Source of the DNA: Elusimicrobiota bacterium | GTDB lineage: Bacteria > Elusimicrobiota > UBA8919 | NCBI GenBank assembly: GCA_043816185.1 | Contig: JBDRIG010000053.1 | Span: 1-34,251, forward strand | DNA length: 34,251 bases | Reading direction: 5' to 3' | Part shown: positions 2,291 through 26,584 of the stretch, piece by piece | How positions within the stretch are numbered: position 1 is the stretch's first letter | Layout: every line of letters starts with the position of its first letter | Notes under the pieces: generated by a model | What the model was told of the DNA's origin: nothing | The model's database searches: none | The model's input: the letters and a program-made list of their open reading frames with translations, nothing else | Translations under genes and position numbers: made by a program

Positions 2291-2353
2291 CTGAAGCCCA
2301 AGTTCCAATAAAACCCAACGTTTAATTCTCGACTCAATTTCAGATGCAACAAA

Positions 2354-4040: not shown

Positions 4041-4041
4041 T

Positions 4042-4401: not shown

Positions 4402-4500
4402 TGTTGGCTCCACAAAAATCGTCGAGGATCGCTTACAGGAAAATATGTAAAATAATTTACTCTCCTGTTTCTTTATTCTCCTACTCCCTACCTCTCGAAC

Positions 4501-6313: not shown

Positions 6314-7417
6314 CTATGCGATTGTTTTTTCCGTTTTTATGTCAAACATGTGTACTTTATCCATATCAAACACAACCTCAATATCCTGATTAATTTCTGC
6401 TTTATTATAAGCATCTACTCTTGCTATAAATGTATTTTTGCCTGTTGTAAGATATAAATATTTTTCTGCACCTACTGGTTCCACAACTTCAACGGTAACC
6501 ATTACTGTCTTCCCCTCTGTTCCAATACTTGAATAAAATAACTTGTCGTGTATGTGTTCTGGTCTTATGCCGAAAGTAACTTTTTTATTTATATATTCTT
6601 CCAGTGGTGCCACCATTTTTTTGTTTGCTTCAACCACAAAGGTTCCCTCGTCAAGATATATTTTATCATCTTTTTTTACTACCGTACATTCTATAAAATT
6701 TGTCGATGGGGAACCAATAAACCCTGCTACAAACTTATTTGCCGGGCTATGATAAATGGTAAACGGATCTGCTGCTTGGTGTATGACTCCATTTTTTATC
6801 ACCACAACTTTATCTCCCATTGTCATTGCCTCTATCTGGTCGTGGGTAACATATATTATTGTTGATTGAAGCTGTTGATGTAGTTTCTTAATTTCTGTGC
6901 GCATTTGAAATCTTAACTTTGCATCAAGATTTGATAGTGGCTCATCAAATAAAAACACTTTTGGTTTTCTAACAATCGCCCTACCTACCGCTACTCGCTG
7001 TTTCTGTCCACCTGAAAGTTGTTTAGGCAATCTATCCATTAGTTTTTCTAACTCTAACATTTTCGCAATTTTTTCCACTCTTTCCGTTATGTCCTTTTTA
7101 GAATATCCTTTGAGTTTAAGTGCAAACGCCATATTTTTCCGTACAGTCATATGTGGATATAAAGCATAACTCTGAAATACCATTGCTATATCTCTATCTT
7201 TAGGTAGCTTATTGTTAATTAATTTACCGTCAATATAAATCTCACCTTCTGACGGATCCTCCAATCCCGCTATCATTCGCAAGATTGTTGTTTTACCACA
7301 ACCCGACGGTCCCAACAATACACAGAACTCCTTGTCGTTTATTTCTAAATCAATGTTTTTTACTACCTGTGTCTTACCAAACGCTTTACATACATTTTTA
7401 AGCATTACATGTGCCAT
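6314..7417 (-). CDS. Sugar ABC transporter ATP-binding subunit (MalK/MsmX/UgpC family)
   Basis: GPSGCGKT Walker A, VFQSYALYPHM, LSGGQ, DEPLSNLD, YVTHDQ, C-terminal TOBE; AGGAGG SD. Confidence 0.95.
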   Translation of the reverse strand: MAHVMLKNVCKAFGKTQVVKNIDLEINDKEFCVLLGPSGCGKTTILRMIAGLEDPSEGEIYIDGKLINNKLPKDRDIAMVFQSYALYPHMTVRKNMAFALKLKGYSKKDITERVEKIAKMLELEKLMDRLPKQLSGGQKQRVAVGRAIVRKPKVFLFDEPLSNLDAKLRFQMRTEIKKLHQQLQSTIIYVTHDQIEAMTMGDKVVVIKNGVIHQAADPFTIYHSPANKFVAGFIGSPSTNFIECTVVKKDDKIYLDEGTFVVEANKKMVAPLEEYINKKVTFGIRPEHIHDKLFYSSIGTEGKTVMVTVEVVEPVGAEKYLYLTTGKNTFIARVDAYNKAEINQDIEVVFDMDKVHMFDIKTEKTIA

Positions 7418-7420
7418 TTT

Positions 7421-9781: not shown

Positions 9782-9886
9782 AAATTAGTGTACTTCATTC
9801 GTTAATTGATTATATGTTGGCTAACGATACGTTCCGTGTTTTATGTATATTATTATACAGCGTACTGTTAGATAACAGATAACAAA

Positions 9887-10279
9887 TTATTCACCGATAA
9901 ATTCTTTAATTTTTTCAATCAACTTCTCAAAATTTATTGGCTTGGGCATAACAAATATTTTGCCTCCATGCTTATCTACTTGTTTTTCAATAATTACTTT
10001 CACTACATCTTCAGGTGATGTACATGATATAGTAATAACTGGGATAAATACCGTATCGGTAGATATTTTCAATCTATCTAAAACTATATACCCGCCTCCT
10101 GCTGGTAACATTATGTCTAAGATAATTAAATCAGGTTTTTCTTGATGCGCCACCCTTACGCCTTGCATTCCATCAAATGCAATCACCACTTTATATCCTG
10201 CGGTTTGTAATCTATCTTTTAGCAATTCAATAATACTTTCATCGTCGTCAATGACAAGAATCTTGCGTTCTTTTGCCAT
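9887..10279 (-). CDS. Single-domain response regulator
   Basis: ILVIDDD, DLIILDIMLP, KP. ATG at 10279 has a GGAGG SD (ORF track starts at 10297). Confidence 0.88.
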   Translation of the reverse strand: MAKERKILVIDDDESIIELLKDRLQTAGYKVVIAFDGMQGVRVAHQEKPDLIILDIMLPAGGGYIVLDRLKISTDTVFIPVITISCTSPEDVVKVIIEKQVDKHGGKIFVMPKPINFEKLIEKIKEFIGE

Positions 10280-10343
10280 ATACAAAACCTCCCGCATATG
10301 AGGAAAACAATGTAATCTGATATTGTTAAAAAACTCAACAATT

Positions 10344-12809
10344 TTATTGTATCACTATATTTTGTAAATTGCCATTGGTAGAAAATTTTATTTTTAATGT
10401 CCCATTAAAATATTTAACTGATACTTTTTTTTCTGAATTTTCTGAAGACGAATTAATTTTTACAGATTTTGGTTTTTGTGGATATTTTAATTCTATCTCA
10501 GCATTATATGTAGAAGGTGCATGTACATCTAATGATAAAAATTTTCCATCAATTTTGTAATTTAGCACTTCAATATTGCTATATCTGATTTTAATCTGTT
10601 CGCTTAGAGAAACATTTAATGGCAATATCTGAGCCGTGCTACGGAACATTGATATCTCTGGAATCTTTGTATATTTTGTCTCACCTGGAAGAACTAATTT
10701 TACGCTAACCATTTCATCTTGTCTATGATAATTATGTAAAAACAAAAAGCCGAATTTATCATGCCGCTCATTTATGTAGTTATGTGTCATACCTTTGATG
10801 CGAAAGCAAGTGGTGGGATTATCACTACTTCTCAATGTTGCAGAGATATTTGAATTCGTAAGTTCTATTGTTCGCTTTATACCGAGCATATCTGCAAAAT
10901 ATTTTATTATATCTATATGATAATTAAATAAATGTGTAATACCAAATCCAAAAACTACAACCTCACCTTTTCCAATTTTTCTTTTTAACCCACAAACCAA
11001 ATTGTTCACTGTTTTAGATATGATTTCGTCTTCGGCTACCGCACTGTAAACCTGAACTTTATCTACGGTATACACATCGCTACCCCACCGATTATCCTTG
11101 ACTCGGAGATCTAATTTTTTGGTTGGCAGGCGGGCTGGATTATTTTTAACAAAAACAATATTTTCATTGATACTATTTTGTATAGAAAATCCAAAACTTT
11201 TAGCAATATTTTGTGTTACAGAGGGACCTATAACTAATTTCCCTCCACATTTAACGAATTCAACTAATTTTTGTTCTGTTTGAAAATCCATAAATTCAAG
11301 TGAAAAAACCCACAGATGCGGAATCTTTTTAAGTTCAGAGATTGCAATTGTTTCTAAATTAACAAAATTGTAATTAAATCCAGCAAGCTGCACCAATCTT
11401 GCAATACCATCAAAAAAGAAATTATTTCTTTTCATTTCAAGTTCATTTATAAATTTTCCTTGTAAAAGTTCTGTTGCATAATAAGGTGGATAAAAACCAA
11501 TTGTTGTGTCGAACATTTTTTTCGTTTGTGCCAATTTGCTTCCAAAAGATTTTATAAATGTACCAAAAAGTTTTATTGGTTTAAAATGTAATCTTTCTTT
11601 TCCTTCGGAACTAACGGGTGCCTGCCATTCATGATAACTACCAAATATACCTGTCCCTAATTGATCTTTTCCGCCTGAGAACATATAACAGTTCAATCCA
11701 TTTAATCCATGTGCAGTAGATGTTTTCAAATTTAGCTCAACATCTTGGGAATAAATTTTTGGTCTATCTAACAGTATGCCTGTTTGCAGTTCACAGCACA
11801 TACTCGGAATGTGGGGTGAGGAAACCATTTTTACCACTTCGGTAGTTATCGCTACATCGTGAAAATTTTCCCAATCTAATTCTCGCATTTGATATGCACC
11901 ACCAAAAATTACATCTGGAACATATTTTATAAAATTCTTAAACATAATTGTCGTCATAGGACTATATATTCCACGACCTCGCACATCAAAATCATAAAAC
12001 TGCGGTATATTAGCAATAACTGGAACTGTTATGCCAAATTTTTTTGCGGTTGTGTAAAGTATTCCGAAATATCTTGCATAATAATCGCAATAGAAATAGA
12101 TCCAATCACAATACAATAAAAATTTTTCTTTTTCTGCCTCATTATTTGGTTGTGAAATTTCATCAAAATTTTGATATTTTGTATCGTAAGAATTGTTCAA
12201 TTTGTTTATAGTTCCATACTTATCTTGTAGAAAATTTCTATACATCTTCTCCGTATTTTCACTATAATCAGGTGCCTTATGCAGCCATTGAATCACACCA
12301 ATTTCATTACAAAGTTGAGCAAGAATTATTGGACCATTTTTTTCAATTTGAAATTCCGATATTAAGGGTAAAAGTTTAGAATACCATCTTTCAACAAATT
12401 TTAAGTAAGTTGGATTGTGATAAGAAATAAGGGTTACTTGTGTTAGTTTCGCCAACTCTTTTGCTTTTACATATACCTGTGGATAATTTTCATATAACCA
12501 TTTTGGAAGACCCTCACAAATTAGTTCTGCGTTTGAAGCAGGACCCACTCTGGCAATAAAATAAAGATTTAATTCCTTCAGAAGTTTTATAAAAGCTAAG
12601 AGTTCATCAAAATTGAATTCTCCTTCTTCTTTTTCGTGTATACACCAAGGAATATACGACGATATTGTGTTTAGTCCTGCTTTTTTTGCTTTCAAAAGAT
12701 GTGCACGCCAATATTTTTTTTCAATACGGAAATAGTGCATTTCACCCGAATAAACAAAAAACGGTTTTTGGTTTAATAAAATCATGTTATTGATAAGTTC
12801 GATTTTCAT
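10344..12809 (-). CDS. GH35 glycoside hydrolase/transglycosylase, GlmA/SGT-like architecture
   Basis: SGEMHYFR, AGLNTISSYIPW..HE..EG.FNF, GGLP-like EGLPKWL, QLCNE acid/base, CELQTG, NCYMFSGG, and a GH42-like middle domain LWVFSLEFMD...LVEFVKCGGKLVIGP. Confidence 0.85.
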   Translation of the reverse strand: MKIELINNMILLNQKPFFVYSGEMHYFRIEKKYWRAHLLKAKKAGLNTISSYIPWCIHEKEEGEFNFDELLAFIKLLKELNLYFIARVGPASNAELICEGLPKWLYENYPQVYVKAKELAKLTQVTLISYHNPTYLKFVERWYSKLLPLISEFQIEKNGPIILAQLCNEIGVIQWLHKAPDYSENTEKMYRNFLQDKYGTINKLNNSYDTKYQNFDEISQPNNEAEKEKFLLYCDWIYFYCDYYARYFGILYTTAKKFGITVPVIANIPQFYDFDVRGRGIYSPMTTIMFKNFIKYVPDVIFGGAYQMRELDWENFHDVAITTEVVKMVSSPHIPSMCCELQTGILLDRPKIYSQDVELNLKTSTAHGLNGLNCYMFSGGKDQLGTGIFGSYHEWQAPVSSEGKERLHFKPIKLFGTFIKSFGSKLAQTKKMFDTTIGFYPPYYATELLQGKFINELEMKRNNFFFDGIARLVQLAGFNYNFVNLETIAISELKKIPHLWVFSLEFMDFQTEQKLVEFVKCGGKLVIGPSVTQNIAKSFGFSIQNSINENIVFVKNNPARLPTKKLDLRVKDNRWGSDVYTVDKVQVYSAVAEDEIISKTVNNLVCGLKRKIGKGEVVVFGFGITHLFNYHIDIIKYFADMLGIKRTIELTNSNISATLRSSDNPTTCFRIKGMTHNYINERHDKFGFLFLHNYHRQDEMVSVKLVLPGETKYTKIPEISMFRSTAQILPLNVSLSEQIKIRYSNIEVLNYKIDGKFLSLDVHAPSTYNAEIELKYPQKPKSVKINSSSENSEKKVSVKYFNGTLKIKFSTNGNLQNIVIQ

Positions 12810-12871: not shown

Positions 12872-12955
12872 AGAAGCGAATGAAATGAGCGACGAAGCAA
12901 TCTCGGTTTTCAACACAGAGATTGCCACGAGTCCTGCGTGTAATACTTCACAATT
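12872..12955. repeat. REP-like dispersed repeat, copy A
   Basis: agaagcgaatgaaatgagcgacgaagcaatctcg...gagattgccac...gtgtaatacttcacaatt; closely matches 25373-25462 and, inverted and partial, 34077-34110. Confidence 0.8.
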
Positions 12956-12965
12956 CACTATCTTT

Positions 12966-13838
12966 TTATCCTTTCAATCCAGTAGTGCTAAAACTTCCTA
13001 TAATAAATTTTTGGGCAAATAAAAAAATTAAAATCATCGGTGCTACGACGATAAGCGAACCACCCATTAACAAACCATAATCTGTAGCATATTCACCACT
13101 AAGGTTTGCAAGTGCAACAGGTAAAGTATATTTACTCTCTTTCGTAAGAACAATCAAAGGCCATAAAAAATTATTCCACGCACCCATAAACGCAAATACA
13201 CCAAGTGCTGCAAGCACAGGTTTACAGAGAGGCAAAATTATATTCCAAAAAATTCTAAAATCCGAACAACCATCAATTCTTGCAGATTCTATTAATTCAT
13301 TTGGTATGGAAGACATAAATTGTCTTATTAAAAAAATATTAAAAGCACTTGCCATAGCAGGAATTATCAATCCAAAATATGAATTAAGTAATCCGAGTGA
13401 TTTCAAAATTAAAAAAACCGGTATCATTGTCATTTGACCAGGAACCATAAGTGTCGTCAATAAAAGTGCAAATATCTTTTCTTTACCTGGAAAATTTAGT
13501 TTTGCAAATGCAAACGCCGCCAAAGCATTAACAAATAAACTTAAAATAGTAATAGCGATAGCAATTATCAAACTATTTTTTGTACAAACACCAAAATCAA
13601 ACCCTAATTTCCCTTTTTTCTCTCTTACCTGAGGCGATTCTATACCAAAAAGCCGTTGATAATTTTCCAAAGTTGGCGATTTCGGTACCCATTGTGGAGG
13701 GTAAGTAAAAATGCTTTCGGAAGATTTAAAAGAAGTGGAAATCATCCATACAAAAGGTGTAAGTGTAATTACTAGCCCAATTAGTAAAAAAATATGCACC
13801 GAAAATCTACGAAATTTTTGTAACATTGTCTTCCACAT
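12966..13838 (-). CDS. Carbohydrate ABC transporter permease (MalG-like)
   Basis: TM profile, EAA loop ELIESARIDGCS, WNNFLWPLIV, TLPVAL; GGAGG SD. Confidence 0.95.
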   Translation of the reverse strand: MWKTMLQKFRRFSVHIFLLIGLVITLTPFVWMISTSFKSSESIFTYPPQWVPKSPTLENYQRLFGIESPQVREKKGKLGFDFGVCTKNSLIIAIAITILSLFVNALAAFAFAKLNFPGKEKIFALLLTTLMVPGQMTMIPVFLILKSLGLLNSYFGLIIPAMASAFNIFLIRQFMSSIPNELIESARIDGCSDFRIFWNIILPLCKPVLAALGVFAFMGAWNNFLWPLIVLTKESKYTLPVALANLSGEYATDYGLLMGGSLIVVAPMILIFLFAQKFIIGSFSTTGLKG

Positions 13839-13988
13839 TTAATAAACCTCCCATAAATAGGACAGGAAATAGTACTTAAGAATTGATTAAATTAACAACT
13901 CTACTATTCCACATTCCTTCGCTACAGGTTTCACCTGCGGTGAACCTATTTAATTATTTGTTGGCTTTTTTGTTCCTTACCTCGTATT

Positions 13989-16271
13989 TTATTCTTCCTT
14001 CTGAAGTTTTAGTTGTAGCATTGTAAAACTGAATATTATCGCAAACAATACATATGCAATGGCAGACGCGTATCCAAATTGAAAAAATTTAAATCCTCGA
14101 TAGTACATATGCAATACTATAGAAACCGTGCTGTTCAAAGGTCCACCCTGCGTCATAACATATGGTTCATCAAAAAATTGAAAATATCCAATAAGCGTTG
14201 TGATTGTTATAAACAGCGTGGTTGGCTTTAAGCCAGGAACTGTGATGTACCAGAAACTTTGCCATCTATCAGCACCATCAACTTTTGCAGATTCGTATAA
14301 AGACAATGGTATTGCTTGAAGACCTGCAAGAAAAATTACCATGTTGTATCCAAAACCTTTCCAAATAGCCATAGCAATAAGTGACGGTAAAGCAAGCTTT
14401 GTATCCATAAGCCAGTTTTTGGGTGATATTCCCAATAATCCTAAAAACCAATTTATAATACCATAATCGGGATTATAAAGCCACTTCCATATTACTGCTA
14501 CTGCTACGAGTGTAGTTATTACTGGAATAAAATAACATGCACGAAAAAATGATTTAAATTTGACAAAAGTTTCATTTAACACAATTGCCATAAAAAGCGA
14601 AATAACGATTGAAATCGGTACCCCTACGCCAACAAAAATAGCGGTATTTCTCAATGACTTCCAAAATACATCGTCGCTAAAAAGCGATATGTAGTTTGTA
14701 AATCCTACAAACGATATTTTTCTCCAATCGGTTATGGAATTGACATCACAATTTGACAAACTCAACAAAAATGATGTTATGATAGGAATAAACAAAAAAA
14801 TTAGAAGTATGATTGTTGCAGGAAAAATAAAAATGTAAGGTGTATAACTCAATTTATCAACATTGCTATTAGATCCTTTCTTCCATAATAAAAATAGTAT
14901 CGCACAAATTACTACAACGGTGGAAAAAATTGAAAAAAATAAAGTTGAATTATAGGATTTTGAATGTTTTCTTTCCAGCACAGTATTAATTCCAGATATT
15001 ATCTCTTTAAGCATTTTATCTTCATTTTCGCCACCCCAAGTAACACTTTCAACCTTCTGTCCGATGATATGTGTTATCTCTTCCCACTCAGGAATATTTG
15101 GTGGACTCGCTGCGTCTTCTAACTGCTGTCCAAAAACTTTTACCATCGGTTTATTATCAAAAAAAGGGTCGCCCCAAGCAGCACGCAACGACGGTAAATC
15201 AGCGGTTAATTTATACCATTTTATTTGGTTTTCGGGTCTGCTCATAAACTCAATAAATTTCCATGCAGTTTCTTTATGTTTCGATTTATTAAAAACTACT
15301 AGATTACAACCACCAACAAATGAAGTTTGTTTTTTCCTTTTCCATAAAACAGATACATCCCATTTTCCTTTTATTTCGGGACATTCTTTTTCAACAAGTT
15401 CTACCATCCAGGGACCAGAAATGAACATTGCGTAATAACCCGTCTTAAATGCTTGAAATAGATTAATATCCGCACCAGTTGTAATAGGTGCAATCTTTTC
15501 TTTTTTAAATATATCAACATAGAACTTGAATGCTTCTCGGAAACAATCTGTCCCAGCAGCGGCATATCTATTGTCGCTCGTAAGAAAATTAGCATCATTC
15601 TGCCATACAAAAAGCCCTAATTCTGTCCAAACACCACCACCACCAGATGGCAAATTTATACCCCACTTATCAATTTTTCCGTCGCCATTTGTATCTTTGG
15701 TTAATTTCTTACCAATTTTTATAAGTTCGTCCCATGTTCTTGGTGGATGATCGTAACCAACCTGTTTTAATAAGTCCTTACGATAGAAGAGAACCCTTGT
15801 ATCGACGTACCATGGAATACCATACAACTTTTTTTCTATAACATTCGTACTCCACGAGCCAGCAAAAAATTTATTTTTTGATATAAAGTTTGAGCTTTCT
15901 GCATACTTATCGAGCTGAGTAAGTGAATTCATCGCATTAAATTCTGCCATCCAAGTTGTACCAAGTTGACTTACATCAGGCGGCACTCCACCAATAACTG
16001 CCGTCATAAGTTTCTCGTGTGCAGCACCCCAAGGTATTGCCTGAGTAATTACTTTTACATCGGGATTTTCTTGTTCGAACAATTGCGCCATTTCTGGTAT
16101 TTTTCTACCCTCAGCACCCATCGCCCAAACGGTCAATGTTTCTTTTGCAGTCTTTGCAAAAACGGTCGATAAACCAGACATTAACAATGTTACAAAAAAC
16201 GTGAATTGTAGGACGTGAATTGCAAAACGTGAACCGTAAATAACAGATATTCTTTTTTTATTCATTTTCAT
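13989..16271 (-). CDS. Fused extracellular sugar-binding protein + MalF-like permease
   Basis: N-terminal family-1 binding protein (PDVSQLGTTW, YGIPWYVDTRVLFYRKDLL, AMFISGPW), then permease (LYESAKVDGA, FDEPYVMTQGGP) in one open frame. ATG at 16271 fits the AGGAG SD (track starts at GTG 16280). Confidence 0.9.
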   Translation of the reverse strand: MKMNKKRISVIYGSRFAIHVLQFTFFVTLLMSGLSTVFAKTAKETLTVWAMGAEGRKIPEMAQLFEQENPDVKVITQAIPWGAAHEKLMTAVIGGVPPDVSQLGTTWMAEFNAMNSLTQLDKYAESSNFISKNKFFAGSWSTNVIEKKLYGIPWYVDTRVLFYRKDLLKQVGYDHPPRTWDELIKIGKKLTKDTNGDGKIDKWGINLPSGGGGVWTELGLFVWQNDANFLTSDNRYAAAGTDCFREAFKFYVDIFKKEKIAPITTGADINLFQAFKTGYYAMFISGPWMVELVEKECPEIKGKWDVSVLWKRKKQTSFVGGCNLVVFNKSKHKETAWKFIEFMSRPENQIKWYKLTADLPSLRAAWGDPFFDNKPMVKVFGQQLEDAASPPNIPEWEEITHIIGQKVESVTWGGENEDKMLKEIISGINTVLERKHSKSYNSTLFFSIFSTVVVICAILFLLWKKGSNSNVDKLSYTPYIFIFPATIILLIFLFIPIITSFLLSLSNCDVNSITDWRKISFVGFTNYISLFSDDVFWKSLRNTAIFVGVGVPISIVISLFMAIVLNETFVKFKSFFRACYFIPVITTLVAVAVIWKWLYNPDYGIINWFLGLLGISPKNWLMDTKLALPSLIAMAIWKGFGYNMVIFLAGLQAIPLSLYESAKVDGADRWQSFWYITVPGLKPTTLFITITTLIGYFQFFDEPYVMTQGGPLNSTVSIVLHMYYRGFKFFQFGYASAIAYVLFAIIFSFTMLQLKLQKEE

Positions 16272-16548
16272 TTCATACACTCCTGTTTGTTATGCCTGCT
16301 TTTCGCCTACACTGGGCCTTAGATAATTCTTACAACTCTCAATTCCACCATTTTCTTATTGCTACCGATATATCATTCTTAACGGAATTTTTGATTTGCC
16401 TGTGGTTACTGTTGTTACCGAAATTGTGAAGTATTACACTTCGGAACAATTGGATTAATGCCCATGAATTTTATAATGTCCCATAGCCCCGTAGTGGCGA
16501 TATATTAGTAGAAACTCACCGCTTTTAAGGACGATTATACGGAAATTA

Positions 16549-18750
16549 CTAAAAACTTAAATTAGCAAAAATATTTAAATAATTATCGTTATATGGCGAA
16601 CCCTTTGGCTCCCATGATGAATCACCAAATCGCGTTGTTTTGTAACTTATTAAGAAACCAAAATCAGTCATTATTTTGTAGTCAACATCTGTTTGCAACG
16701 AGTGGGTTATGTATTTTCTGCTTGTTGCAGGATGATAAATTTTATCTTCTTGCAATGTAAGTTTTAAAACAAATGGCGATTTCAAACCAGGCGTATTAGG
16801 ATAAATAAAATTATATTTACAATAAATTTTTAAACTTTCAACCTCTTCGTTCTTATCTATTTCCATCGTTGTGTTTTTATACTCTTCAGTTCTTATTTCC
16901 TTATTTAATTTTAACTCCATTTCTTTGGGACCAAAATATCCTATGCCAAAATTTGTAGTTTTACGATAATATTTTTTATCGGAATTTCTTACAATATTAT
17001 CATAAAATACATTTACATTAAATCCCTTATGCCACTGCTCAAATTGAATCTTATGGCCTCTTTGATCTGCAATAACATCTTCAAATACAATTGGTTCTTG
17101 ACGATATTTTGGTTTGAAATTCGTTCCTATATCCCGATAAGAACAAACAAACTTTGTCCCTCGCCATGGTAACCCATCAAAAAATAGTTTGTATTCATAG
17201 AGTTCTGAATTCACGGTTGGAGAAGATATTGCGTGGCTATAAACAGGATTTGCGGAATCAGTATAATCTGCTTTTGCAATCTCATTGTTGTGATAATATC
17301 CATGAATTAATTCTAAATTCATTCGATAGTGAAAAAATCTTGAAAGCGAACTTATTAAGTATGAATATTCATTGCTCACTGGTTTAATTATCCAATCTTC
17401 CGATGGGACTACTATTCCATTTATTATGGACGAAGATGGTAGTTTTGCTGTTTCAGAATCATACAATCCTACAAATTGTAATCGGTGATTATCCATATAA
17501 AACATACTGCGATTACCGATAGAAAACGAGTTATAGTGTCTTTTAATTAAAAAGGTAGATTGTTCGAAGTCATTCCTTCTGCCAGATACAGAGATACCTC
17601 TCCAACCCCAGAACGGTGAAATAATGTATGGCGAATATCCTATCCATATATTGCCAACAGTTATCTTGTTGAATAGTGGGTCCACTTTATCGACGTTGAA
17701 TTGAATAGTTGGAATAGAAATTGTCGGCAAAGTTTCATTAAATTCTGTATATGGATAATCATCTATAAACTTCTGACTACCAGCTTGACCAAATTCTCGA
17801 TCTTCAATTACCGATTTTATTCTACAACTTAGTATGCCTGATTTTCCTTCAATTGTAAGTCCTGCAGAATGAAAAATTTCATTTTTTCTCTCGGGTGTCC
17901 AACGATAACTAACTCCGACATTGCCTGCTAAAAGAATCTCTGTTTTTGCCTCATCTTTTTCTGCTAAAATATCAATTTCACGGACAGTAGTTTCTGTTAA
18001 TTCTTCATTTTCATTCTCCGAAAAATAAATATTATCCAAATATATTGCCCCTGTTTTTTCGGTTGCATTTTCATTAAATACGACTGTAAACTCAGTAATA
18101 CTTTTCCAGTTATCTATTTTTTCAAATACGCTTAACGGAATAATAAATTTTTTCCAACGATTTGTTACACCGTCAATAATATATTTACTTGGCTGATTTT
18201 TTGTTTTTAATTCAATTTGAAATCTACGCGTATAGCCGTCTTTTTCACTACCACGAACAGAAAATATTAGGTATTTAGATTTGCTTAAATTTAAACCTGC
18301 ACCTGGAAAAAGAAAATAAAAACCATTAAAAGCAGTATGTGGTAAGTTATTTGTTAATCCTACGATGCTGTAGGCGGAATAATCTAATATATATGTTGGA
18401 GTGAGAAAAAAATATTTCTGTGCGGAGTCGATATCATATTCTAATTTTAGCGAATAGCCTTTCTCTCTTTTTTTGAAAGACGCTTTACAGCCTGCAGTTT
18501 TATCGTCTGGATTATTTTCCCACTGACCATTAAATTCACCAACTTTATTAACAAACTCTGCTGTATTAAAATCGTCAATCAAGATAACTTCAGATTGAAC
18601 AGATACAACTGAAACCAACAAAAAACCTGTAGCCAATAACGAATAACCAGTAGTTAATTTCAAGTGACCAGCAACCAGTTTCCAATTTTCAGTTATCAGT
18701 TTCCAGAGACCAACTGCCAATTTTAAGAAAAGCTTTTGTAAAATTTTCAT
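16549..18750 (-). CDS. Secreted protein: CBM11/CIA30-like domain + predicted outer-membrane beta-barrel
   Basis: Signal peptide; IDDFN...LKLEYDI...FQIELK...WKKFIIPLSVF...GAIYLDNIYF; C-terminal ~470 aa of amphipathic aromatic-rich strands ending NIFANLSF (terminal Phe); GGAGG SD. Confidence 0.65.
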   Translation of the reverse strand: MKILQKLFLKLAVGLWKLITENWKLVAGHLKLTTGYSLLATGFLLVSVVSVQSEVILIDDFNTAEFVNKVGEFNGQWENNPDDKTAGCKASFKKREKGYSLKLEYDIDSAQKYFFLTPTYILDYSAYSIVGLTNNLPHTAFNGFYFLFPGAGLNLSKSKYLIFSVRGSEKDGYTRRFQIELKTKNQPSKYIIDGVTNRWKKFIIPLSVFEKIDNWKSITEFTVVFNENATEKTGAIYLDNIYFSENENEELTETTVREIDILAEKDEAKTEILLAGNVGVSYRWTPERKNEIFHSAGLTIEGKSGILSCRIKSVIEDREFGQAGSQKFIDDYPYTEFNETLPTISIPTIQFNVDKVDPLFNKITVGNIWIGYSPYIISPFWGWRGISVSGRRNDFEQSTFLIKRHYNSFSIGNRSMFYMDNHRLQFVGLYDSETAKLPSSSIINGIVVPSEDWIIKPVSNEYSYLISSLSRFFHYRMNLELIHGYYHNNEIAKADYTDSANPVYSHAISSPTVNSELYEYKLFFDGLPWRGTKFVCSYRDIGTNFKPKYRQEPIVFEDVIADQRGHKIQFEQWHKGFNVNVFYDNIVRNSDKKYYRKTTNFGIGYFGPKEMELKLNKEIRTEEYKNTTMEIDKNEEVESLKIYCKYNFIYPNTPGLKSPFVLKLTLQEDKIYHPATSRKYITHSLQTDVDYKIMTDFGFLISYKTTRFGDSSWEPKGSPYNDNYLNIFANLSF
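18625..18722. repeat. Degenerate heptamer tandem array (14 units) inside a signal-peptide coding region
   Basis: acctgta gccaata acgaata accagta gttaatt tcaagtg accagca accagtt tccaatt ttcagtt atcagtt tccagag accaact gccaatt. Confidence 0.7.
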
Positions 18751-18856: not shown

Positions 18857-19753
18857 CTACTTACCAGCTCTTATTGATAATGTAAAAAAGTGGGTATACC
18901 CCAACATACAATGTTCAGAAAATGCCCAGTCAAATTGCAGATTATTAAAGTTTAAGCTGAGGCCATAAGCGACAATATTTTTTTTACTCGATAGATTGTT
19001 TATGCCTGCCCTTAAACCAATCGTCTTTTTTAATGTCAACAATTCAATCCCAGAATTTAATTTTTTTAATTTTTCATAATCGAATGCAATTTTTAAATTT
19101 TCTATTGGACTGTAACTCATACCTGGACGAAAATTTATGTCCAATTTATCTGTCACACCTGTATCCCAAACAATTTTTGAATTATTTAAATTTTGTAACA
19201 TCAGTCCCAAATTAAGTTTTTTGTCAAATAACTCATACAATAACCCTGTATCCAATCCCCATCCAGAAGCATTGCTTTCTGAAAATAGACGATAGAATTT
19301 AAAATTTACTCCGCAAAATAAATTTTTTGGATATGCAACTCGCCCTGCAAGTGTAACAATGTAGGTGTCTTCAGTGTAATCAAATTCAACATTATTTGTT
19401 GTACCAATTCTATGGATTGAAATTGCAGTATTTAATACATTGCCTGGAACAGAAAATGCAACATAATTTTGGGTTAACAGATTTAATGAATAAAAATCTC
19501 TATATGAAAACATTACTTGATGCTTATTAATTTTACCTATTCCAGCAGGATTGTAATATACGCTATTAAGATCGTCGCTAATTCCAGTAAACGCACCGCC
19601 TAAACCTTGTGGTCGTGCATTTAAACCAGTGTCGTCAAAAGCAGAGTGTAGGAGGGATTGAGCAGGGAGTAAAAAAAGCAAAAAAACCAGGGCGTAGAAA
19701 TAGCAGGACAAGGAGTAATAAAACCAAGATAATAGATTTATAGATTTTTTCAT
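18857..19753 (-). CDS. PorV/PorP-SprF/FadL-like outer-membrane barrel protein
   Basis: Signal peptide then SAF...ARPQGLGGAFTGISDDLNSVYYNPAGI, GWGLDTGLLY, LQFDWAF...LGYTHFFTL. ATG at 19753 preferred; the GTG at 19813 lies in repeat DNA. Confidence 0.8.
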   Translation of the reverse strand: MKKSINLLSWFYYSLSCYFYALVFLLFLLPAQSLLHSAFDDTGLNARPQGLGGAFTGISDDLNSVYYNPAGIGKINKHQVMFSYRDFYSLNLLTQNYVAFSVPGNVLNTAISIHRIGTTNNVEFDYTEDTYIVTLAGRVAYPKNLFCGVNFKFYRLFSESNASGWGLDTGLLYELFDKKLNLGLMLQNLNNSKIVWDTGVTDKLDINFRPGMSYSPIENLKIAFDYEKLKKLNSGIELLTLKKTIGLRAGINNLSSKKNIVAYGLSLNFNNLQFDWAFSEHCMLGYTHFFTLSIRAGK

Positions 19754-19837
19754 TTTTATTTTTTTGTTCTTGGAAAATTTTTTATAACTTCTTATTTTAT
19801 TCGCTTCGCACACAATGACTGGCAGGTAGCTCGCAAT

Positions 19838-20007: not shown

Positions 20008-21942
20008 TTATCTTAACACTGCAATAACATTTGTTGTTTTATCTTTTTTAGTAGCGGTTTCTGCGGTAAGTTGATAAAAATACATTCCATTGCTCACAAT
20101 TGAGCCTGAATTATTATTACCTCTCCATTCAATAGAGTATAATGTATTTGCATTTTGCTGACTCTTGTCTTCTTCGTAAACAATATCCCCTGCGAGGCTA
20201 TAAATTACTAATTTTACTGATGCTGCTTCAGAAAGTAAATATGCAAAAACTGCTCCATCTTTTATGCCATCACCATTTGGTGAAAACGGATTATTTACAA
20301 TGGTAAACAACTTGATTATTTTTTCTGCCTGTACTGTTACCAGTAAATCTTTATTTATATCGTATAGATTTCTAACTGAAACTGTTCCTGCTCCACCAGT
20401 GTTCCTGGATACAACAAAGGATATCGTCTTAATCTTTTTCAAATCAAGCGTATCTACTATATTCCCCTGTAAATCTTTACCACTTTTTAACAAAGAAAAT
20501 TCTTCAAACGGAATAAGCATATCGTTCCAAACATTATTCGTATTTGTAATATTAAAAAATTTTCTATAAAATGTTGTTTCGTTTTTATCGGCAATTTTAA
20601 ACTCTAAATTATTGTTTGCACCTGAACCTTTATACTGAAACCATATCGTATCAGAATTGGCAATATTTGTTCCCCAATCACGCTCAAGAACCACCCAATC
20701 GTCTATATTCGCTGGCAAACGATTAAAACTATATTGTAACCCAATCGCATCGTCACTAAGTCCCGCCACATTTGCAATTTTTGTTGTTGTAATTTCTTTA
20801 TCCTCATCTTTACCATAATTTACCCAGCCAGAAGTTTTGCAATATGAGTTCATACTATCAATTAAACCGATTGCACTACTACTATTTGTTCCACCAGAAG
20901 TAAATCCGATGCGATCAATATATACAATTCCTGCAAGAGGATCTTGGTCAAAAACAAAATTTATTTGTTTAACAGCAGTTGAAATTAAATTAGTAAAATC
21001 GGAAAGTGGTACTAATACTTCTTGGTAGGTCGTAGAAGTTCCCGTCGGTAAATAGGCGGCAAGTTGAACAGATTTTGTAGTTGTTGATATATCGTTGAGT
21101 TCTATTTTAAATTTTCTTTCAGCAACATCACTTTTTACATAAAATTTTAGATGTGTGTATAAACTTAAATTTCTATAACCACTGTCACCAGCTGAACTTA
21201 AAAATATATAGTAGCCACACCACTTGGCTGGCGGAAGATTGTAAGTTAATAACAACGCATAAATTCCTTCGTATTTATCAGTTGTATAGCTAACCGTTGG
21301 ATTGTAAAGCCCATCTTGCGACATTATGCCTTCGTTACCACCAGCCTCATTTGGAGGTATACCAAAGTCGAAAGAATCAACAAGAAGAAAGTCGTTTGTA
21401 TCGAATTTATAGGATTCGATTTTATCAATTGCAATACTGCCACTACCACCGTCGGAAGGCGTAACAGCAAATGCTAATTTCGAAATTTTCTTTGTATCGA
21501 GTACACCGTTTCCCATTCCAGGCCAGCAAGACAAACTACTAAATGGAACGATCATTTCTGTCCACTGAGAAATATCGGTAACCTTTTCTATTTTTCTATC
21601 AAATACGTCGCCATCAGTATCGTAAATTTGCAATTTCAGATGATTTTCTGAACCAGAACCTTTGAAGTAAAATTTTATTGCATCACTTGCTGAAATATCC
21701 AAATCTGCAAATATATTGTTGTATAATTCAATCCAGTTGCCACTATTAAAATCATAACTTATTTTGTTTGCATTTTCAGAAATTACAACAGATGCAACTA
21801 CATCAGTATCAGCACTAATCGTCCAAGGCAGATTCGCATCATAACTAATACTTTTAGATTCAGATGCACAGCAATCTGTTTTAGATAATAAAAAACAAAA
21901 CAACATTAATATTATTGTTTTTTTCAGACCTTTCTCCGCCAT
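20008..21942 (-). CDS. Secreted protein with three CBM11/CIA30-like domains and a C-terminal gliding-motility/T9SS type-B-like CTD (FlgD-Ig)
   Basis: Three repeats such as FYFKGSGSENHLKLQI...W.EM.VPFS.L...I.ID.I; C-terminus NNPFSPNGDGIKD...KLVIYSLAGDIV...WRGNNNSGSIVSNGMYFYQL...IAVLR. Start overlaps the upstream stop (TAATG). Confidence 0.8.
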   Translation of the reverse strand: MAEKGLKKTIILMLFCFLLSKTDCCASESKSISYDANLPWTISADTDVVASVVISENANKISYDFNSGNWIELYNNIFADLDISASDAIKFYFKGSGSENHLKLQIYDTDGDVFDRKIEKVTDISQWTEMIVPFSSLSCWPGMGNGVLDTKKISKLAFAVTPSDGGSGSIAIDKIESYKFDTNDFLLVDSFDFGIPPNEAGGNEGIMSQDGLYNPTVSYTTDKYEGIYALLLTYNLPPAKWCGYYIFLSSAGDSGYRNLSLYTHLKFYVKSDVAERKFKIELNDISTTTKSVQLAAYLPTGTSTTYQEVLVPLSDFTNLISTAVKQINFVFDQDPLAGIVYIDRIGFTSGGTNSSSAIGLIDSMNSYCKTSGWVNYGKDEDKEITTTKIANVAGLSDDAIGLQYSFNRLPANIDDWVVLERDWGTNIANSDTIWFQYKGSGANNNLEFKIADKNETTFYRKFFNITNTNNVWNDMLIPFEEFSLLKSGKDLQGNIVDTLDLKKIKTISFVVSRNTGGAGTVSVRNLYDINKDLLVTVQAEKIIKLFTIVNNPFSPNGDGIKDGAVFAYLLSEAASVKLVIYSLAGDIVYEEDKSQQNANTLYSIEWRGNNNSGSIVSNGMYFYQLTAETATKKDKTTNVIAVLR

Positions 21943-24434
21943 TATTTAATTTTTAACTTACCTAATTTTATTCCTGCTGGTGTGTTTTTGAATGACCAAT
22001 TAATTTTTTTTTCTTCACTTCCGTCTTTATCTATGTCATGTGCAGCAACTGACATACCTAAGAAAGCATTGTTTTCTGGTTTCATGCCGAGAAACGACCA
22101 TTTTATTTTTGAATTAATTTTATATCCATCTGCTGTTTGACGAACCGAAATATCCACATTTCCTTCTGGATCTACGTTCTGAAAAAATGCGTATGCAATT
22201 GGTTTTTTCTCAATACTATTTGGCGCAAAACCAATCTGAAAATTTCTTTTATCGCCCCAAATTAAAGTATCTGAATTTGGACTCAAATATAGTTCAACAC
22301 AGTCAGATCTATAAATTCCATCTTTTTTTTCTGAAGCAATTATTTTATTATCTGTGACATCTACAATAAAGTAAAGATACTCGTCGTTGTACAAAAATGC
22401 AAATTTTGCACTCAAATCGGTTGGTGTTTTTATACTACCAAATTCAATATTTTCTGATTGCGAAAAATCAATAAAATCAGCATCTTTCAATTCATTGATT
22501 GATTTTACTGCTCTTGCAGTATACACATTGGGCATAAATTCAGATTTTTCCTCGCCAAACTTACTTTTTAGATGTGTTACATCTATTTTTTTTCCACCCG
22601 ACTTAAAATATGCTCTTTCTAATCCTTTTTGAATGTATGGATTTTTCATAAAATATTTCCACACAAAATCACTGCGATAATTTTCTATCATCACCAATGT
22701 TATACCTAAATCAATTCCAATATGTTCAGTCGAAAACCAGTTTGCATCTATATTAAATGCACTTACAAACCCATATCTATCGTCCCATACTCTATAGCCA
22801 TGTTCAAATAGAAGTTTTCGTAATGTAGAAATTGCTAATTGCGGTACAAATGGCATTGAAGCACAAATTGCATATGGTGCGATCGTACCATCGTTGGTAA
22901 AGATTGTTGCACCATAATTTTTATATCCGTAGGGACCGTCGCTTGCAGACAAACCCCAAAAACCGTCCATGTAAGTTTTGTATTTATCTTTATGCTCCTT
23001 GCAAAATTCTATACTTGATTTAGTAGCGGTAAGCGAATTGTTCCAATAGTTAGCATATTTATCATATTTATTTCTAAAATCAATAAATCCATGCGAATAC
23101 TGATATGTGAACAGCGATTCGCTTTCACAATAAATGTACGATTGATTTTTATATGATTTTACAGGTCTTCTGAATGAATCCCAAGAATCTTCGGGGAGAG
23201 GGTATGTTGGTGAGCCTAACCCCAATACATATATAAGCATCTCCTCACCAAACATATCCCATAAAATGAATTTCTTAAATTTATCTTCTGGCGTCCAACC
23301 CATATATAGTGTTTTGGATTTGTCGTCCATTATCCATGTCCATTCAACGCCAGAATATATTTCATCACATAGTAATTTTATATCCTGCTCCAAAAAGTAT
23401 TCTTTTGCCGTTATTACACCTGCAAGCAATAACGCCGTATCTACTGATGAAATCTCGGAATTCCACACGCGAGAACCAATATGCATGTTAACAAAATGGT
23501 AAAAAAAACCATGCTCACCTGCCAATTTAGTTTTTATTGCTTCAAGTGTTTTCTTCACCCTATCGTATGCCTGTTGATGTGTAATCCATTTTCTTGAATC
23601 ACCAATACAAATGGCTGTTAATCCAAAACCAGTTGCAGCAATACTTGAAGGTGAATCTAATCTTGATCTATCTTTTACAAATCCAGTTGCATAATTTGAT
23701 TCATTCCAAAAATAGTTAAATGTTTTTTTAGAAATCAACTCCAGTAGTTCATCTTTCGGTAATCGAGATATTTTTTCAAACTCTCGTTTTTTTTGCTCAA
23801 TCTGTTCTTGAATAACCACATTCCTGCTTTCATACTCGTATTCACCATGGTTATTATCAAAAACTATATCATCTAAAAATATTTCTCCAGATGAATTACC
23901 TAATCGCTCTCCTTCAAAAACAAAAACCAGTTCTGTCATTTTGCTGAAGTCGGTTATACCGCGAAACTTGTTTAACGGAATCGATATTTTCCTCCAATTT
24001 TGATTAATACCTGTCACGGCATATGAGCCAGATTCACCCAGATAATTTTTTAGTTCAATTTTGAATACCGACGGCAATACGGTTCCACATTTGATAAAAA
24101 ATTCTAACAGTGTATAAGCCCTTATGTTGATTCCGTTAAGTTTTGAATAGTAACCATTATAGGCACTTTCTGTGACCTTATAATTTAACTTCAACACTAT
24201 TGTTGGACGATTACTACCGCTGATATTATCTTGTAGAAATTCCGAAACGCAATATTCACTTTCCTCTAACAGATCTTTTTCCCAAACAGACGACAATCCA
24301 CCAATTAGATTTATATTATTTCGTAATTCAAAATCATCAACCACTAAGGCAGAGCCAAAGCACGCAATAGCAAATTCGATGATTATCAGCGGAATAAAAA
24401 CTATTTTATTTAGCGACATTTTATTTAGCGACAT
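21942..24434 (-). CDS. Secreted GH144/SGL-clan ('glucoamylase-like') glucanase with N-terminal CBM11/CIA30-like and C-terminal CBM9/DOMON-like domains
   Basis: SIAATGFGL, HGFFYHF, SEISSVDTALLLAG, LYMGWTPE, LGLGSPT, LFTYQYSH, WGLSASDGP, DGTIAP, IGIDLG..LVMIENYR; C-terminal YLYFIVDVTD...SDCVELY. Confidence 0.82.
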   Translation of the reverse strand: MSLNKMSLNKIVFIPLIIIEFAIACFGSALVVDDFELRNNINLIGGLSSVWEKDLLEESEYCVSEFLQDNISGSNRPTIVLKLNYKVTESAYNGYYSKLNGINIRAYTLLEFFIKCGTVLPSVFKIELKNYLGESGSYAVTGINQNWRKISIPLNKFRGITDFSKMTELVFVFEGERLGNSSGEIFLDDIVFDNNHGEYEYESRNVVIQEQIEQKKREFEKISRLPKDELLELISKKTFNYFWNESNYATGFVKDRSRLDSPSSIAATGFGLTAICIGDSRKWITHQQAYDRVKKTLEAIKTKLAGEHGFFYHFVNMHIGSRVWNSEISSVDTALLLAGVITAKEYFLEQDIKLLCDEIYSGVEWTWIMDDKSKTLYMGWTPEDKFKKFILWDMFGEEMLIYVLGLGSPTYPLPEDSWDSFRRPVKSYKNQSYIYCESESLFTYQYSHGFIDFRNKYDKYANYWNNSLTATKSSIEFCKEHKDKYKTYMDGFWGLSASDGPYGYKNYGATIFTNDGTIAPYAICASMPFVPQLAISTLRKLLFEHGYRVWDDRYGFVSAFNIDANWFSTEHIGIDLGITLVMIENYRSDFVWKYFMKNPYIQKGLERAYFKSGGKKIDVTHLKSKFGEEKSEFMPNVYTARAVKSINELKDADFIDFSQSENIEFGSIKTPTDLSAKFAFLYNDEYLYFIVDVTDNKIIASEKKDGIYRSDCVELYLSPNSDTLIWGDKRNFQIGFAPNSIEKKPIAYAFFQNVDPEGNVDISVRQTADGYKINSKIKWSFLGMKPENNAFLGMSVAAHDIDKDGSEEKKINWSFKNTPAGIKLGKLKIK
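24405..24434. repeat. Perfect 15-bp tandem duplication at a stop/start junction
   Basis: tttatttagcgacat twice, giving MSLNK-MSLNK. Confidence 0.9.
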
Positions 24435-25098
24435 AAATGTTGTCTATATTTATTGTACCTGTTTTAGGTGTAGATGTTATATCATCAAAAACAATGACAA
24501 ACTCTGTCATTTCTGCAAAATCAGTTATACCACGAAAATTTTCAAATACAACAACCTTTTCTTGCCATTGTTCTGTGACACCCATAATAAGAGCGCGTCC
24601 AACCTCACCTTTTGCATTTTTTAACTCTATTTTAAATTTATCAGTAAACTTTGTTGTTCTATTACCCTTGACAGATAAACACAATTTTTTATATGGTCTA
24701 AAATCAGTACCCTCAAGTTTCATCCAGAAGCCATTATACGCTGGATTTTTTGAATCAACATCATATACGAGTTTTACAGAAAATCCCTCGTCTCCAACTT
24801 TTACATCATAATCAAAGCTTTCCTTGCAGAACTGAGTTTTGTCAGTCGGATCTTTATCCCATCCACCAAAACCACCACCAAGCATATTTGGTTTTACACC
24901 AGCGTTGAAGTCGTCAATAAATAACTTTTCGGGTACTACCTTTTTAACCTCTGGTTGTTGAACTACTACCTGCTTAACTTCTTGCTGTTTAACAACAGTA
25001 AACCGTGACTTTTCCTCTTCCATTTCTAACGATGCACAACCTGCAAAAAATACAACTGTCAAAACCACTGCACAATACTGAGACGCTGTTTTTAACAT
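24421..25098 (-). CDS. Lipoprotein with a single CBM11/CIA30-like domain
   Basis: Lipobox FFAG-C; IDDFNAGVKPNMLGG...YNGFWMKL...FKIELK...TEFVIVFD...GTINIDNIY; AAGGAGG SD. Confidence 0.8.
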   Translation of the reverse strand: MLKTASQYCAVVLTVVFFAGCASLEMEEEKSRFTVVKQQEVKQVVVQQPEVKKVVPEKLFIDDFNAGVKPNMLGGGFGGWDKDPTDKTQFCKESFDYDVKVGDEGFSVKLVYDVDSKNPAYNGFWMKLEGTDFRPYKKLCLSVKGNRTTKFTDKFKIELKNAKGEVGRALIMGVTEQWQEKVVVFENFRGITDFAEMTEFVIVFDDITSTPKTGTINIDNIYVAK

Positions 25099-25342: not shown

Positions 25343-25464
25343 GTCGTTGCGAGTGACCTTGCCGTCGTTGCAAGAAGCGAATGAAATGAGCGACGAAACA
25401 ATCTCGAACTTCAACTTCAACACAGAGATTGCCACAAGCCCTCCGTGTAATACTTCTCAATTTC
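25343..25464. repeat. REP-like dispersed repeat, copy B
   Basis: gtcgttgcgag...agaagcgaatgaaatgagcgacgaaacaatctcg...gagattgccac...gtgtaatacttctcaatttc; matches 12872-12955. Confidence 0.8.
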
Positions 25465-25471
25465 CGATTTT

Positions 25472-26560
25472 CTAAAATTTATACGACATTGAAACCCTGT
25501 GTGAGCCTGTGGTTTCTTGAATCTCTAACGGCCACAAAAAAGCGTAATCAAGTTGTAGTTTAAACTTAAGTTTTGCAACTCTACGATTATATTTAATTTT
25601 TGCAGGAGTCCCTATACTTAATCCAGAAGATAACTCAGTACTGTTCACGCCAAATCGTAAACCAATTAGTTCATTTGCAAACCATGCTTCAGAACCAAAA
25701 CATAAATTCAATTTATCGCTTGTCTTGCCCCATTGCTGATTACGTCCTGCAACATCTAGAGAAAATAAAATGTTTTTTATTACATTAAATTTTTTAATTT
25801 TGTATGCTCCGCCAATTCGTATTTCTGCTGGAACAATGTCTCTGGTTTTTAATCCAACGTCTGGTTGATTTATGTTTTTCAACATAATACCAAAAGATAA
25901 ATCAGACAATTTTTTAGGAAATGGTTTAGAAAATAATCCAAAATCTATTGTGATATTAGACCTTGATTTTCCTTGCACAAACACAGGATCGTCAACAGTA
26001 TAATTATCTAAAATATATGAGTGTTGTAAATATTTTATATTTAGTCCAAGTGAAATTTCTGGAACCAATTTTCGTCTGAAATAGTGTTTAATAAGATCAT
26101 TTATTTTTCTCGCATATGTTAAACTTACAGTATCCTCTCTATATTGTTTGGCAGAAATAAAACTTGCCCAGTTTAAGCCAAATGAACCAACATATTTTAC
26201 AGGAAAGACACACGCAACATAGCTTGTTTCCAAATCCACGGTATCTAAACCAGTATATAATTTTGCATACATAAAATTTAGTTCATTATATTTTACTTGA
26301 TAAATGCCGGCTGGGTTATACAATATCCCGCATGCATCGTTGCTAACTGCCGTAAATGCACCGCCCATACCAACAGGTCGTGTGCCCCAACCAGTATCCT
26401 TAAAAGCAGAGTGTAGAAGTGTAAGATGTAAAGTGTAAAATAAAATCAGTGTAAAACATAAAGTATAAAGTAACAAAAAAAATTTCTTTATACCTAATAT
26501 CCGACGAGTTACACCATTTTTATCGTTTGATATTTTATGTTGTTCCATTTTTTTTCTCAT
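25472..26560 (-). CDS. PorV/PorP-SprF/FadL-like outer-membrane barrel protein
   Basis: SAFKDTGWGTRPVGMGGAFTAVSNDACGILYNPAGI, NINQPDVG, LQLDYAF...GSHRVSMSYKF (terminal Phe). Exact start uncertain. Confidence 0.82.
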   Translation of the reverse strand: MRKKMEQHKISNDKNGVTRRILGIKKFFLLLYTLCFTLILFYTLHLTLLHSAFKDTGWGTRPVGMGGAFTAVSNDACGILYNPAGIYQVKYNELNFMYAKLYTGLDTVDLETSYVACVFPVKYVGSFGLNWASFISAKQYREDTVSLTYARKINDLIKHYFRRKLVPEISLGLNIKYLQHSYILDNYTVDDPVFVQGKSRSNITIDFGLFSKPFPKKLSDLSFGIMLKNINQPDVGLKTRDIVPAEIRIGGAYKIKKFNVIKNILFSLDVAGRNQQWGKTSDKLNLCFGSEAWFANELIGLRFGVNSTELSSGLSIGTPAKIKYNRRVAKLKFKLQLDYAFLWPLEIQETTGSHRVSMSYKF

Positions 26561-26584
26561 TTTAGTAAACCTACACCATCACTC

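Follow-up and report, generated by a model that had tools for sequence, protein, structure and literature searches.

We propose that a 733-amino-acid protein encoded in the window (the whole stretch of DNA analysed, 34,251 nucleotides) belongs to a new family of large outer-membrane barrels that, according to structure models, would be plugged by their own carbohydrate-binding-module (CBM) fold domain and would belong to a conserved three-gene surface module. We lean towards the view that it is an oligosaccharide import channel without a TonB box, gated by its CBM, and that it takes the place of SusC in an uptake module of three surface components in Elusimicrobiota-type bacteria. Sugars are known to enter through outer membranes by small passive porins or by TonB-driven SusC-type transporters, and a barrel of this size with a CBM-fold domain as its gate would, if true, be a third design for this step. 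The protein would also be a single-chain candidate for the missing outer-membrane step of β-1,2-glucan uptake.

A CBM-fold domain and a large barrel in one chain

The open reading frame (ORF) at positions 16549-18750 is real: it encodes 733 residues on the - strand and starts with an ATG that has a GGAGG motif 7 nt upstream. Promoter and terminator scans returned matches at chance level. The protein is organized as follows:

18592..18750, - strand: signal peptide (residues 1-53), with a long n-region, an h-region at residues 37-51 and no lipobox; cleavage placed by homolog alignment
18016..18591, - strand: CBM11/CIA30-fold β-sandwich (residues 54-245), predicted by fold match and docking model to be a lumenal plug on the periplasmic side
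18337..18423, - strand: insertion of ~29 aa in the CBM (residues 110-138), with pLDDT <50 in the AlphaFold2 model
17944..18015, - strand: acidic, variable, low-confidence linker (residues 246-269)
16549..17943, - strand: predicted 22-stranded outer-membrane β-barrel (residues 270-733) with a C-terminal Phe
17614..17640, - strand: conserved loop that joins strands 5 and 6 (residues 371-379) and folds inward against the plug in the model
17065..17127, - strand: loop with the highest conservation, joining strands 13 and 14 (residues 542-562), with P547 and R550 invariant, partly folded inward

The first-pass annotation had described a signal peptide, an acidic linker and ~470 residues of strands ending in Phe, and all three were borne out: residues 37-51 are the sole strongly hydrophobic stretch of the protein, whose mature form probably starts at E54, in agreement with homologs; the linker region (residues 244-270) contains 10 D/E versus 3 K/R; and the C-terminal 468 residues form 22 strands. 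The full-length AlphaFold2 model, built with 52 sequences (pLDDT 84.5, pTM 0.80), displays an N-terminal sandwich, a linker of low confidence (pLDDT <50 at model residues 201-204 and 206-213) and a 22-strand barrel. The protein has no match in Pfam or NCBIfam and no sequence relative in the PDB. Sequence searches found 16 full-length relatives at 39-66% identity, those with a named source being mostly labelled Elusimicrobiota, and one extra row, outside these 16, that matched the CBM alone; a search with only the barrel found 56 representatives at E ≤0.001.

An outer-membrane barrel outside the named families

The C-terminal region had been proposed to be an outer-membrane barrel, and this is supported by the models. 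The barrel modelled alone with 55 sequences (pLDDT 93.7, pTM 0.83) has 22 strands, as in the full-length model, and this excludes a soluble fold for the region. Its strands alternate lipid and lumen faces, with turns of 2-10 residues after even strands and loops of up to 24 residues after odd strands, such that the topology check suggested at first gave that of a 22-strand outer-membrane protein. The last residue is Phe in 52 of 54 homologs, and an Omp85 gene is present in the genome. The lumen is charged and polar, with conserved Arg, Asp and Glu and few aromatics at lumen positions.

Pfam, NCBIfam and PDB sequence searches with the protein and 55 members named no family for the barrel. The AlphaFold and Foldseek comparison, also suggested at first, yielded a high-confidence barrel with no close solved structure: the best Foldseek rows were ushers, at TM ≤0.35 and rmsd >10 Å. 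In a wide fold search, Deinococcus SlpA, FyuA, SusC BT1763 and PapC were tied (Z 16-17, rmsd 5.5-8.2); fold searches in general returned generic barrels, tied and at rmsd >4 Å, and the absence of a close match does not prove a new fold. The nearest look-alikes were DUF6029 (PF19494) barrels and unnamed Atlas barrels (features 0.95, predicted-structure TM 0.68-0.81), the DUF6029 barrels scoring TM 0.68-0.69 in the Atlas. The DUF6029 profile matched none of the 55 family members and no gene of the genome, in a search that was also silent in every control genome.

The N-terminal domain has a CBM11/CIA30 fold

The domain that the first reading had called CBM11/CIA30-like turned out to deserve this name. 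Its model matched CIA30 (Z 16.6, rmsd 3.3, 167 aligned) and CtCBM11 1v0a (Z 16.0, rmsd 2.2, 143 aligned) in fold searches, these two being tied as best match, and 31 of the 55 family members match CBM_11 (E ≤0.01) while 29 of the 55 match CIA30. The CBM of the 733-residue protein itself has no Pfam match, so its CBM11 membership is read from the galactose-binding-domain-like sandwich of the model and from profile matches in relatives. F141 and W215 align near Tyr53 and Tyr129 of CtCBM11, cleft tyrosines for glucan binding, and F141 is variable among close homologs. CIA30 is not known to bind sugars, and both this and the variable F141 count against a sugar-binding plug.

The insertion at residues 110-138 is found in the barrel-fused CBMs of this subfamily, and free CBM paralogs lack it. 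Many family members carry 1-3 extra CBMs ahead of the barrel-proximal one. Among two-CBM members (n=15), conservation was 40% for the proximal CBM, 28% for the distal CBM and 30% for the barrel, and the proximal CBM was the more conserved in 102 of 105 pairs, domain boundaries being approximate. A free secreted CBM gene that lies directly upstream of a barrel gene in another locus (L039:7480-8163) is the nearest to the CBM described here and has only a short insertion. Fusions of a CBM11-like domain to an OmpA-type peptidoglycan-binding domain, in some cases with a CBM9, are found in many barrel loci (L003:5644-6645, L032:6277-8142), and these proteins are possible periplasmic relays.

The CBM is predicted to plug the pore from the periplasmic side

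The first-pass annotation had taken the CBM for a domain capturing glycans outside the cell, and this view did not hold. Since short turns follow even strands and long loops follow odd ones, strand 1 starts on the periplasmic side and so the CBM lies there. A domain that precedes an even-stranded barrel in the chain begins on the periplasmic side and cannot capture glycan outside the cell; extracellular capture by the fused CBM is thus ruled out by barrel topology and docking.

When the barrel and its own CBM were folded as separate chains, the docking score was 0.85 and the best control reached 0.00; the controls were unrelated proteins of similar size, and close cousins can pass. Of 157 solved pairs, 116 reached this docking mark, as did 2 of 215 mismatched ones, figures that are only rough with the alignments used here. 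The predicted interface has ~200 contacts, three runs share at least 85% of them and the partner pLDDT is at least 86. The CBM touches 20 of the 22 strands, with 40 of 46 contacted positions among those assigned to the lumen beforehand and nearly all of them ≤7 residues from the periplasmic end; it also contacts periplasmic turns and two conserved outer loops (residues 371-379 and 551-552), and its insertion belongs to the interface in the model. We counted in favour of a plug that pTM was 0.80 for the full-length protein versus 0.83 for the barrel alone. The CBM is thereby predicted to plug the periplasmic half of the pore, while the inward loops, which carry the invariant P547 and R550, would reach it from outside. 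A plug of ~190 residues with ~200 contacts may, in such a model, be hard to dislodge passively.

The observation that the protein has no TonB box or plug and no LamB signature was correct at the level of sequence, since no TBDT plug, LamB or other family matched, but the protein is not plug-less in the model: it lacks the Plug family of TonB-dependent transporters (TBDTs), and the CBM takes the plug role. The PF07715-type Plug profile matched neither the protein nor the 55 members, and it found 4 other genes in the genome. No TonB box was seen by eye at the mature N-terminus, the first residues being a CBM strand.

The barrel gene lies in a β-1,2-glucan cluster

Judging from the sequences of its genes, the locus is a β-1,2-glucan cluster. 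The neighbours of the barrel gene are as follows:

18857..19813, - strand: PorV/PorQ-like small barrel (NF033709, E 3e-18, below cut-off); its start may lie ~20 codons downstream
20008..21942, - strand: candidate glycan-binding protein of the cell surface, secreted, with three CBM11-like domains plus a C-terminal tail of type-IX-like kind (CHU_C/FlgD_ig)
21942..24434, - strand: CBM11-like, GH144-type β-1,2-glucanase and CBM9 domains
24421..25098, - strand: lipoprotein with one free CBM11-like domain at 24424-24933, its lipobox read from the sequence
25472..28363, - strand: another tail-bearing protein (26585-28363) with a PorV/PorP-like barrel of its own (25472-26560)
29196..34025, - strand: large protein with CBM11-like, GH144-type and Fn3 domains
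12966..16280, - strand: ABC importer, consisting of a binding protein-permease fusion (13989-16280) and a second permease
6314..12809, - strand: GH35 β-1,2-glucosyltransferase homolog (10344-12809), response regulator, GH94 phosphorylase (7421-9781) and MalK ATPase (6314-7417)

The barrel gene is directly upstream of the ABC importer, as the first reading had it: the binding-protein/permease gene follows 268 bp downstream. The importer's binding protein closely resembles Lin1841, which binds sophoro-oligosaccharides (5ysb, E 7.8e-78, against E 3e-38 for the next unrelated group). This homolog and the permease form a single 763-aa ORF (13989-16280), a fusion that recurs in relatives, including in genomes that lack the barrel. 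In the genome of origin (1.44 Mb, 94% complete), the barrel, GH144, GH35, GH94, the importer binding protein and all CBM11-like domains are found by profile only at this locus; no LamB was found in this genome, and no SusD matched among the 17 window proteins scanned. For an Ignavibacterium album cluster with the same enzyme set, a TonB-dependent transporter was proposed for the outer-membrane step, without biochemical evidence (PMC8861115). The glycan context and SusC-like role first suggested for the barrel gain support from this parallel and from the β-1,2-glucan cluster itself. β-1,2-glucan transporters are described as poorly characterised, and the outer-membrane step as still to be found in some organisms, in another paper (PMC13731917).

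Several other elements lie in or near such clusters. A 240-aa secreted protein without family match (window 28366-29088) resembles the N-terminus of the protein at 26585-28363 and is conserved in related loci. An intergenic repeat of ~100 nt occurs in two copies (12872-12964 and 25373-25471), with an inverted part-copy (16420-16439) between the barrel and importer genes. Genes for a FIST protein, a GAF-GGDEF cyclase, a GAF histidine kinase and response regulators flank or interrupt the glucan cluster (883-6036, 9887-10297), and a PilZ gene lies inside loci L003 and L004. A small protein of ~210-220 aa is encoded directly before GH144 in several loci (L043:7750-8421, L078:10266-10898, L044), with a weak HAMP match in one.

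The barrel travels with a PorV-like protein and a CBM-tail protein

Of the 401 genomes that make up the phylum sample, 21 have the barrel. An ortholog of the binding protein was present in 16 of these 21 and in 8 of the 380 barrel-negative genomes, and GH144 (E 1e-40) in 13 of 21 versus 40 of 380, related genomes not being independent in either comparison. Among 24 flanking regions, several of them short downstream, 22 had a PorV-like gene, 20 a CBM-tail protein and 12 the binding protein; with two added loci and lower thresholds, the first two rose to 24/26 and 23/26, with three misses at contig ends. These counts leave out the window itself, a locus that duplicates another, shorter versions of loci already counted, the second piece of a copy that is split in two, and locus L078, which has the same gene order. 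Of the first idea that the ABC importer is the partner of the barrel, what stood is that it is a frequent neighbour (12/24 loci); it is not a constant one, whereas the PorV-like and CBM-tail genes nearly are. The tightest partners of the barrel are secretion-type genes and not the importer, which counts against the import reading.

A profile of the PorV-like neighbour gave at least 296 bits for 23 full places, 207 for one truncated and ≤165 for the rest. The subfamily above this gap occurs in 22 genomes, which are all 21 barrel-positive ones and one other (G176), whose contig ends where related loci have the barrel. The profile was made from 12 of the 22 genomes, with six candidates scored per genome, and nine barrel-positive genomes that did not contribute were still above the gap; copy numbers of the subfamily and of the barrel match in two genomes. 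Tree-distance correlations with the barrel were 0.53 for the PorV-like protein, 0.54 for the CBM-tail protein and 0.68 for the binding protein, values that do not separate the partners.

The most divergent barrels keep the trio, but beside GH99/71-like, GH5/GH2 or GH130/GH65/GH2 genes, and by analogy these copies resemble transporter cassettes for other glycans. Five barrel-negative genomes carry the same GH144 and binding-protein/permease operon, and the stretch fetched around it, which in one of them stops where the contig does, contains neither the barrel nor a PorV-like or CBM gene; the barrel is thus not required for the β-1,2-glucan pathway. A barrel search in 20 of the 40 GH144-positive, barrel-negative genomes gave no match (best E 0.56), and none of six ORFs neighbouring GH144 in barrel-negative genomes was a TonB receptor, with no sign of mutual exclusion with TBDTs among these. 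In three records titled Clostridia (L003, L004, L005), the barrel occurs together with PorV-like and SprA-like genes and with OmpA-domain proteins; because this gene content looks two-membraned, the label is doubtful.

A possible reduced type-IX-like system

The genome of origin has 13 PorV-like genes, only one of which lies beside the barrel, and a 1743-aa SprA-like ORF (L075:7093-12321, - strand) made up of TIGR04189 pieces below cut-off, with a weak CBM_11 match at residues 916-999 (E 8e-5). A SprA-like gene separate from that of the barrel was present in 6 of 6 genomes tested, with matches mostly below cut-off. The sequences of the SprA-like ORF and of the 13 PorV-like genes suggest a reduced type-IX-like system in the phylum, and thereby point to the use of such a secretion kit outside Bacteroidota. 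TIGR04189 matches fall on another gene and not on the barrel, which shares no profile similarity with the SprA-like protein (probability 0.2%). We thus disfavour the barrel as a general component of type IX secretion, given a separate SprA-like gene, 12 PorV-like genes without a barrel and no profile match. No GldM was found in a genome search that was also silent in the controls.

How the barrel may work

Sequence and models together show the barrel, its strand count, the CBM fold, the gene linkage and the substrate class of the neighbours, while the place of the CBM within the lumen is a prediction. In the mechanism that we favour, the tail-bearing multi-CBM protein would leave the cell through the SprA-like gene product, in a secretion of type-IX-like kind, and would be held at the surface by the dedicated PorV-like barrel, by analogy with type IX cargo that binds its PorP-like protein for surface anchorage (PMC9143113). 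There it would gather and concentrate glycan, secreted GH144 enzymes would cut β-1,2-glucan, and the fragments would enter the large barrel past the two conserved charged inward loops and then meet the CBM plug. This plug, for which the acidic linker is a possible release tether, would shift or come free to let the fragments cross, as in the substrate-ejected N-terminal gate reported for a chitoporin (PMC5768706). The sophoro-oligosaccharide ABC importer, followed by GH94 and GH35, would then complete uptake. We infer the direction of import, the ligand, sugar binding by the plug, its passive gating, the energy involved and contact among the three gene products. Linkage with a surface glycan-binding protein and its anchor suggests an uptake of polysaccharide fragments unlike that by SusC/SusD and sugar porins. 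Only tentatively would we go on to a new class of glycan transporters of independent origin in Elusimicrobiota-type bacteria, in which a TBDT-sized barrel would have a CBM as both plug and specificity sensor and would open without TonB for bulky glycans such as cyclic β-1,2-glucan, a type-IX-like multi-CBM lid and its anchor barrel completing a SusCD equivalent.

A strict co-distribution with the PorV-like subfamily (21/21) and the CBM-tail protein (23/26 loci), tighter than with the importer, is also what one would expect of an usher-like export pore, whose lumen fits one folded CBM11-like domain and whose plug would be displaced by the like-folded domains of the CBM-tail protein, this protein then being handed to the PorV-like barrel at the surface. 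Such a pore would be a new protein translocon, of equal importance if true; ushers, which have a β-sandwich plug, are the top Foldseek rows (TM ≤0.35), and the weak CBM_11 match of the SprA-like protein points the same way. We nevertheless find it unlikely, since all six genomes tested have a SprA-like translocon candidate (mostly below cut-off) that shares no profile similarity with the barrel, 12 other PorV-like genes of the genome do without such a barrel, the conserved charged loops reach into the pore from its outer side, filling part of that half as in solute channels, and transporter-plus-lid cassettes yield the same co-distribution. Slightly less plausible still is a sugar porin that is open, if constricted by its loops, with a CBM dangling in the periplasm, where it would serve as a sink or pass sugar on to the ABC binding protein; the docking would then be a modelling tendency or a minor state. 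For this reading, the 24-residue linker is flexible, the 1-3 extra front CBMs of many members cannot all fit, and barrel loci often encode CBM-OmpA proteins and free CBM lipoproteins of the periplasm. Against it, the unrelated control proteins of similar size reached a score of only 0.00 with this barrel, and the proximal CBM is more constrained than the distal one and carries a barrel-specific insertion.

The same 22 strands and N-terminal plug, together with FyuA and SusC among the tied best fold matches (Z ~16, rmsd 5.5-6.7) and a genome with two TonB_C genes and four plug-bearing receptors, would fit an energised, TonB-dependent-like transporter, which TonB or some other motor of the inner membrane would open by acting on a non-canonical site. 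This is improbable in our view: Plug and TBDT barrel profiles match 0 of 55 members, the mature N-terminus is the first CBM strand and is common to free CBMs, extra CBMs stand ahead of the plug in many members, and no tonB or exbBD was noticed in the ORF listing of the listed loci. Least of all do we expect a permanently plugged barrel that transports nothing and serves as a scaffold or lectin-like partner of a surface complex, in the manner of Wzi, although the plug interface is extensive and the nearest named look-alikes are the DUF6029 barrels, which are linked to Wzi-like barrels in one paper (PMC9603273). The lumen is conserved and charged, the importer gene is directly coupled in 12/24 loci, and a transporter was proposed at the same step in the I. 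album cluster (PMC8861115), all of which argue against such a scaffold.

Comparison with known systems

No paper describing the barrel family or a CBM-plugged barrel came up in the literature searched, which consisted mainly of papers outside subscription journals. In the passages searched, a 2026 review of glycoside transporters does not mention Elusimicrobia and mentions porin once (PMC13543919), a barrel survey has nothing on a CBM-barrel architecture (PMC10629564), and a Goldbacteria paper reports many CBM11 copies and no porin (PMC7031533).

On the features tested, the barrel lies outside the TBDT, LamB, usher, SprA and DUF6029 families. With SusC and other TonB-dependent transporters (BT1763, FyuA), its model shares a barrel of 22 strands whose lumen holds an N-terminal domain, and its loci, like theirs, are glycan loci with a constant surface partner. 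It differs from them by a CBM11-fold sandwich as the plug, by the lack of sequence similarity (identity ≤10% and rmsd >5 Å in fold alignments), and by a partner that is not a SusD lipoprotein but a protein secreted in type-IX-like fashion and provided with an anchor barrel of its own. Like LamB with MalEFGK, it would be a sugar channel of the outer membrane whose gene accompanies those of a sugar ABC importer, but it has no LamB profile match, 22 strands compared to the 18 of LamB, and a fused CBM. The FimD/PapC ushers are also large barrels with a β-sandwich plug and top the Foldseek rows; yet TM is ≤0.35 and rmsd >10 Å, the plug is N-terminal and not mid-barrel, strands number 22 and not 24, no usher profile matches, and no pilin or chaperone genes accompany the barrel. 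The adjoining tail-protein and small-barrel genes of the locus resemble type IX cargo with its PorP/SprF-like or PorV/PorQ anchor, except that they occur outside Bacteroidota, match mostly below family cut-offs and are tied to an unclassified large barrel. The nearest look-alikes, DUF6029 (PF19494) and unnamed Atlas barrels, are themselves uncharacterised and have no CBM.

The closest parallel for the proposed gating is with the chitoporin VhChiP and the cyclodextrin channel CymA, passive oligosaccharide channels with an N-terminal segment as a gate ejected by substrate (PMC5768706), to which we liken the CBM plug. They too have an inward-folded constricting loop, but the VhChiP/CymA gates are short peptides in smaller barrels, against a whole folded domain in a 22-strand barrel here, and their fold scores with the barrel (Z 12-14) are no better than those of unrelated barrels. 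Altogether, in its function the protein would most resemble either SusC with a surface partner or a substrate-gated porin.
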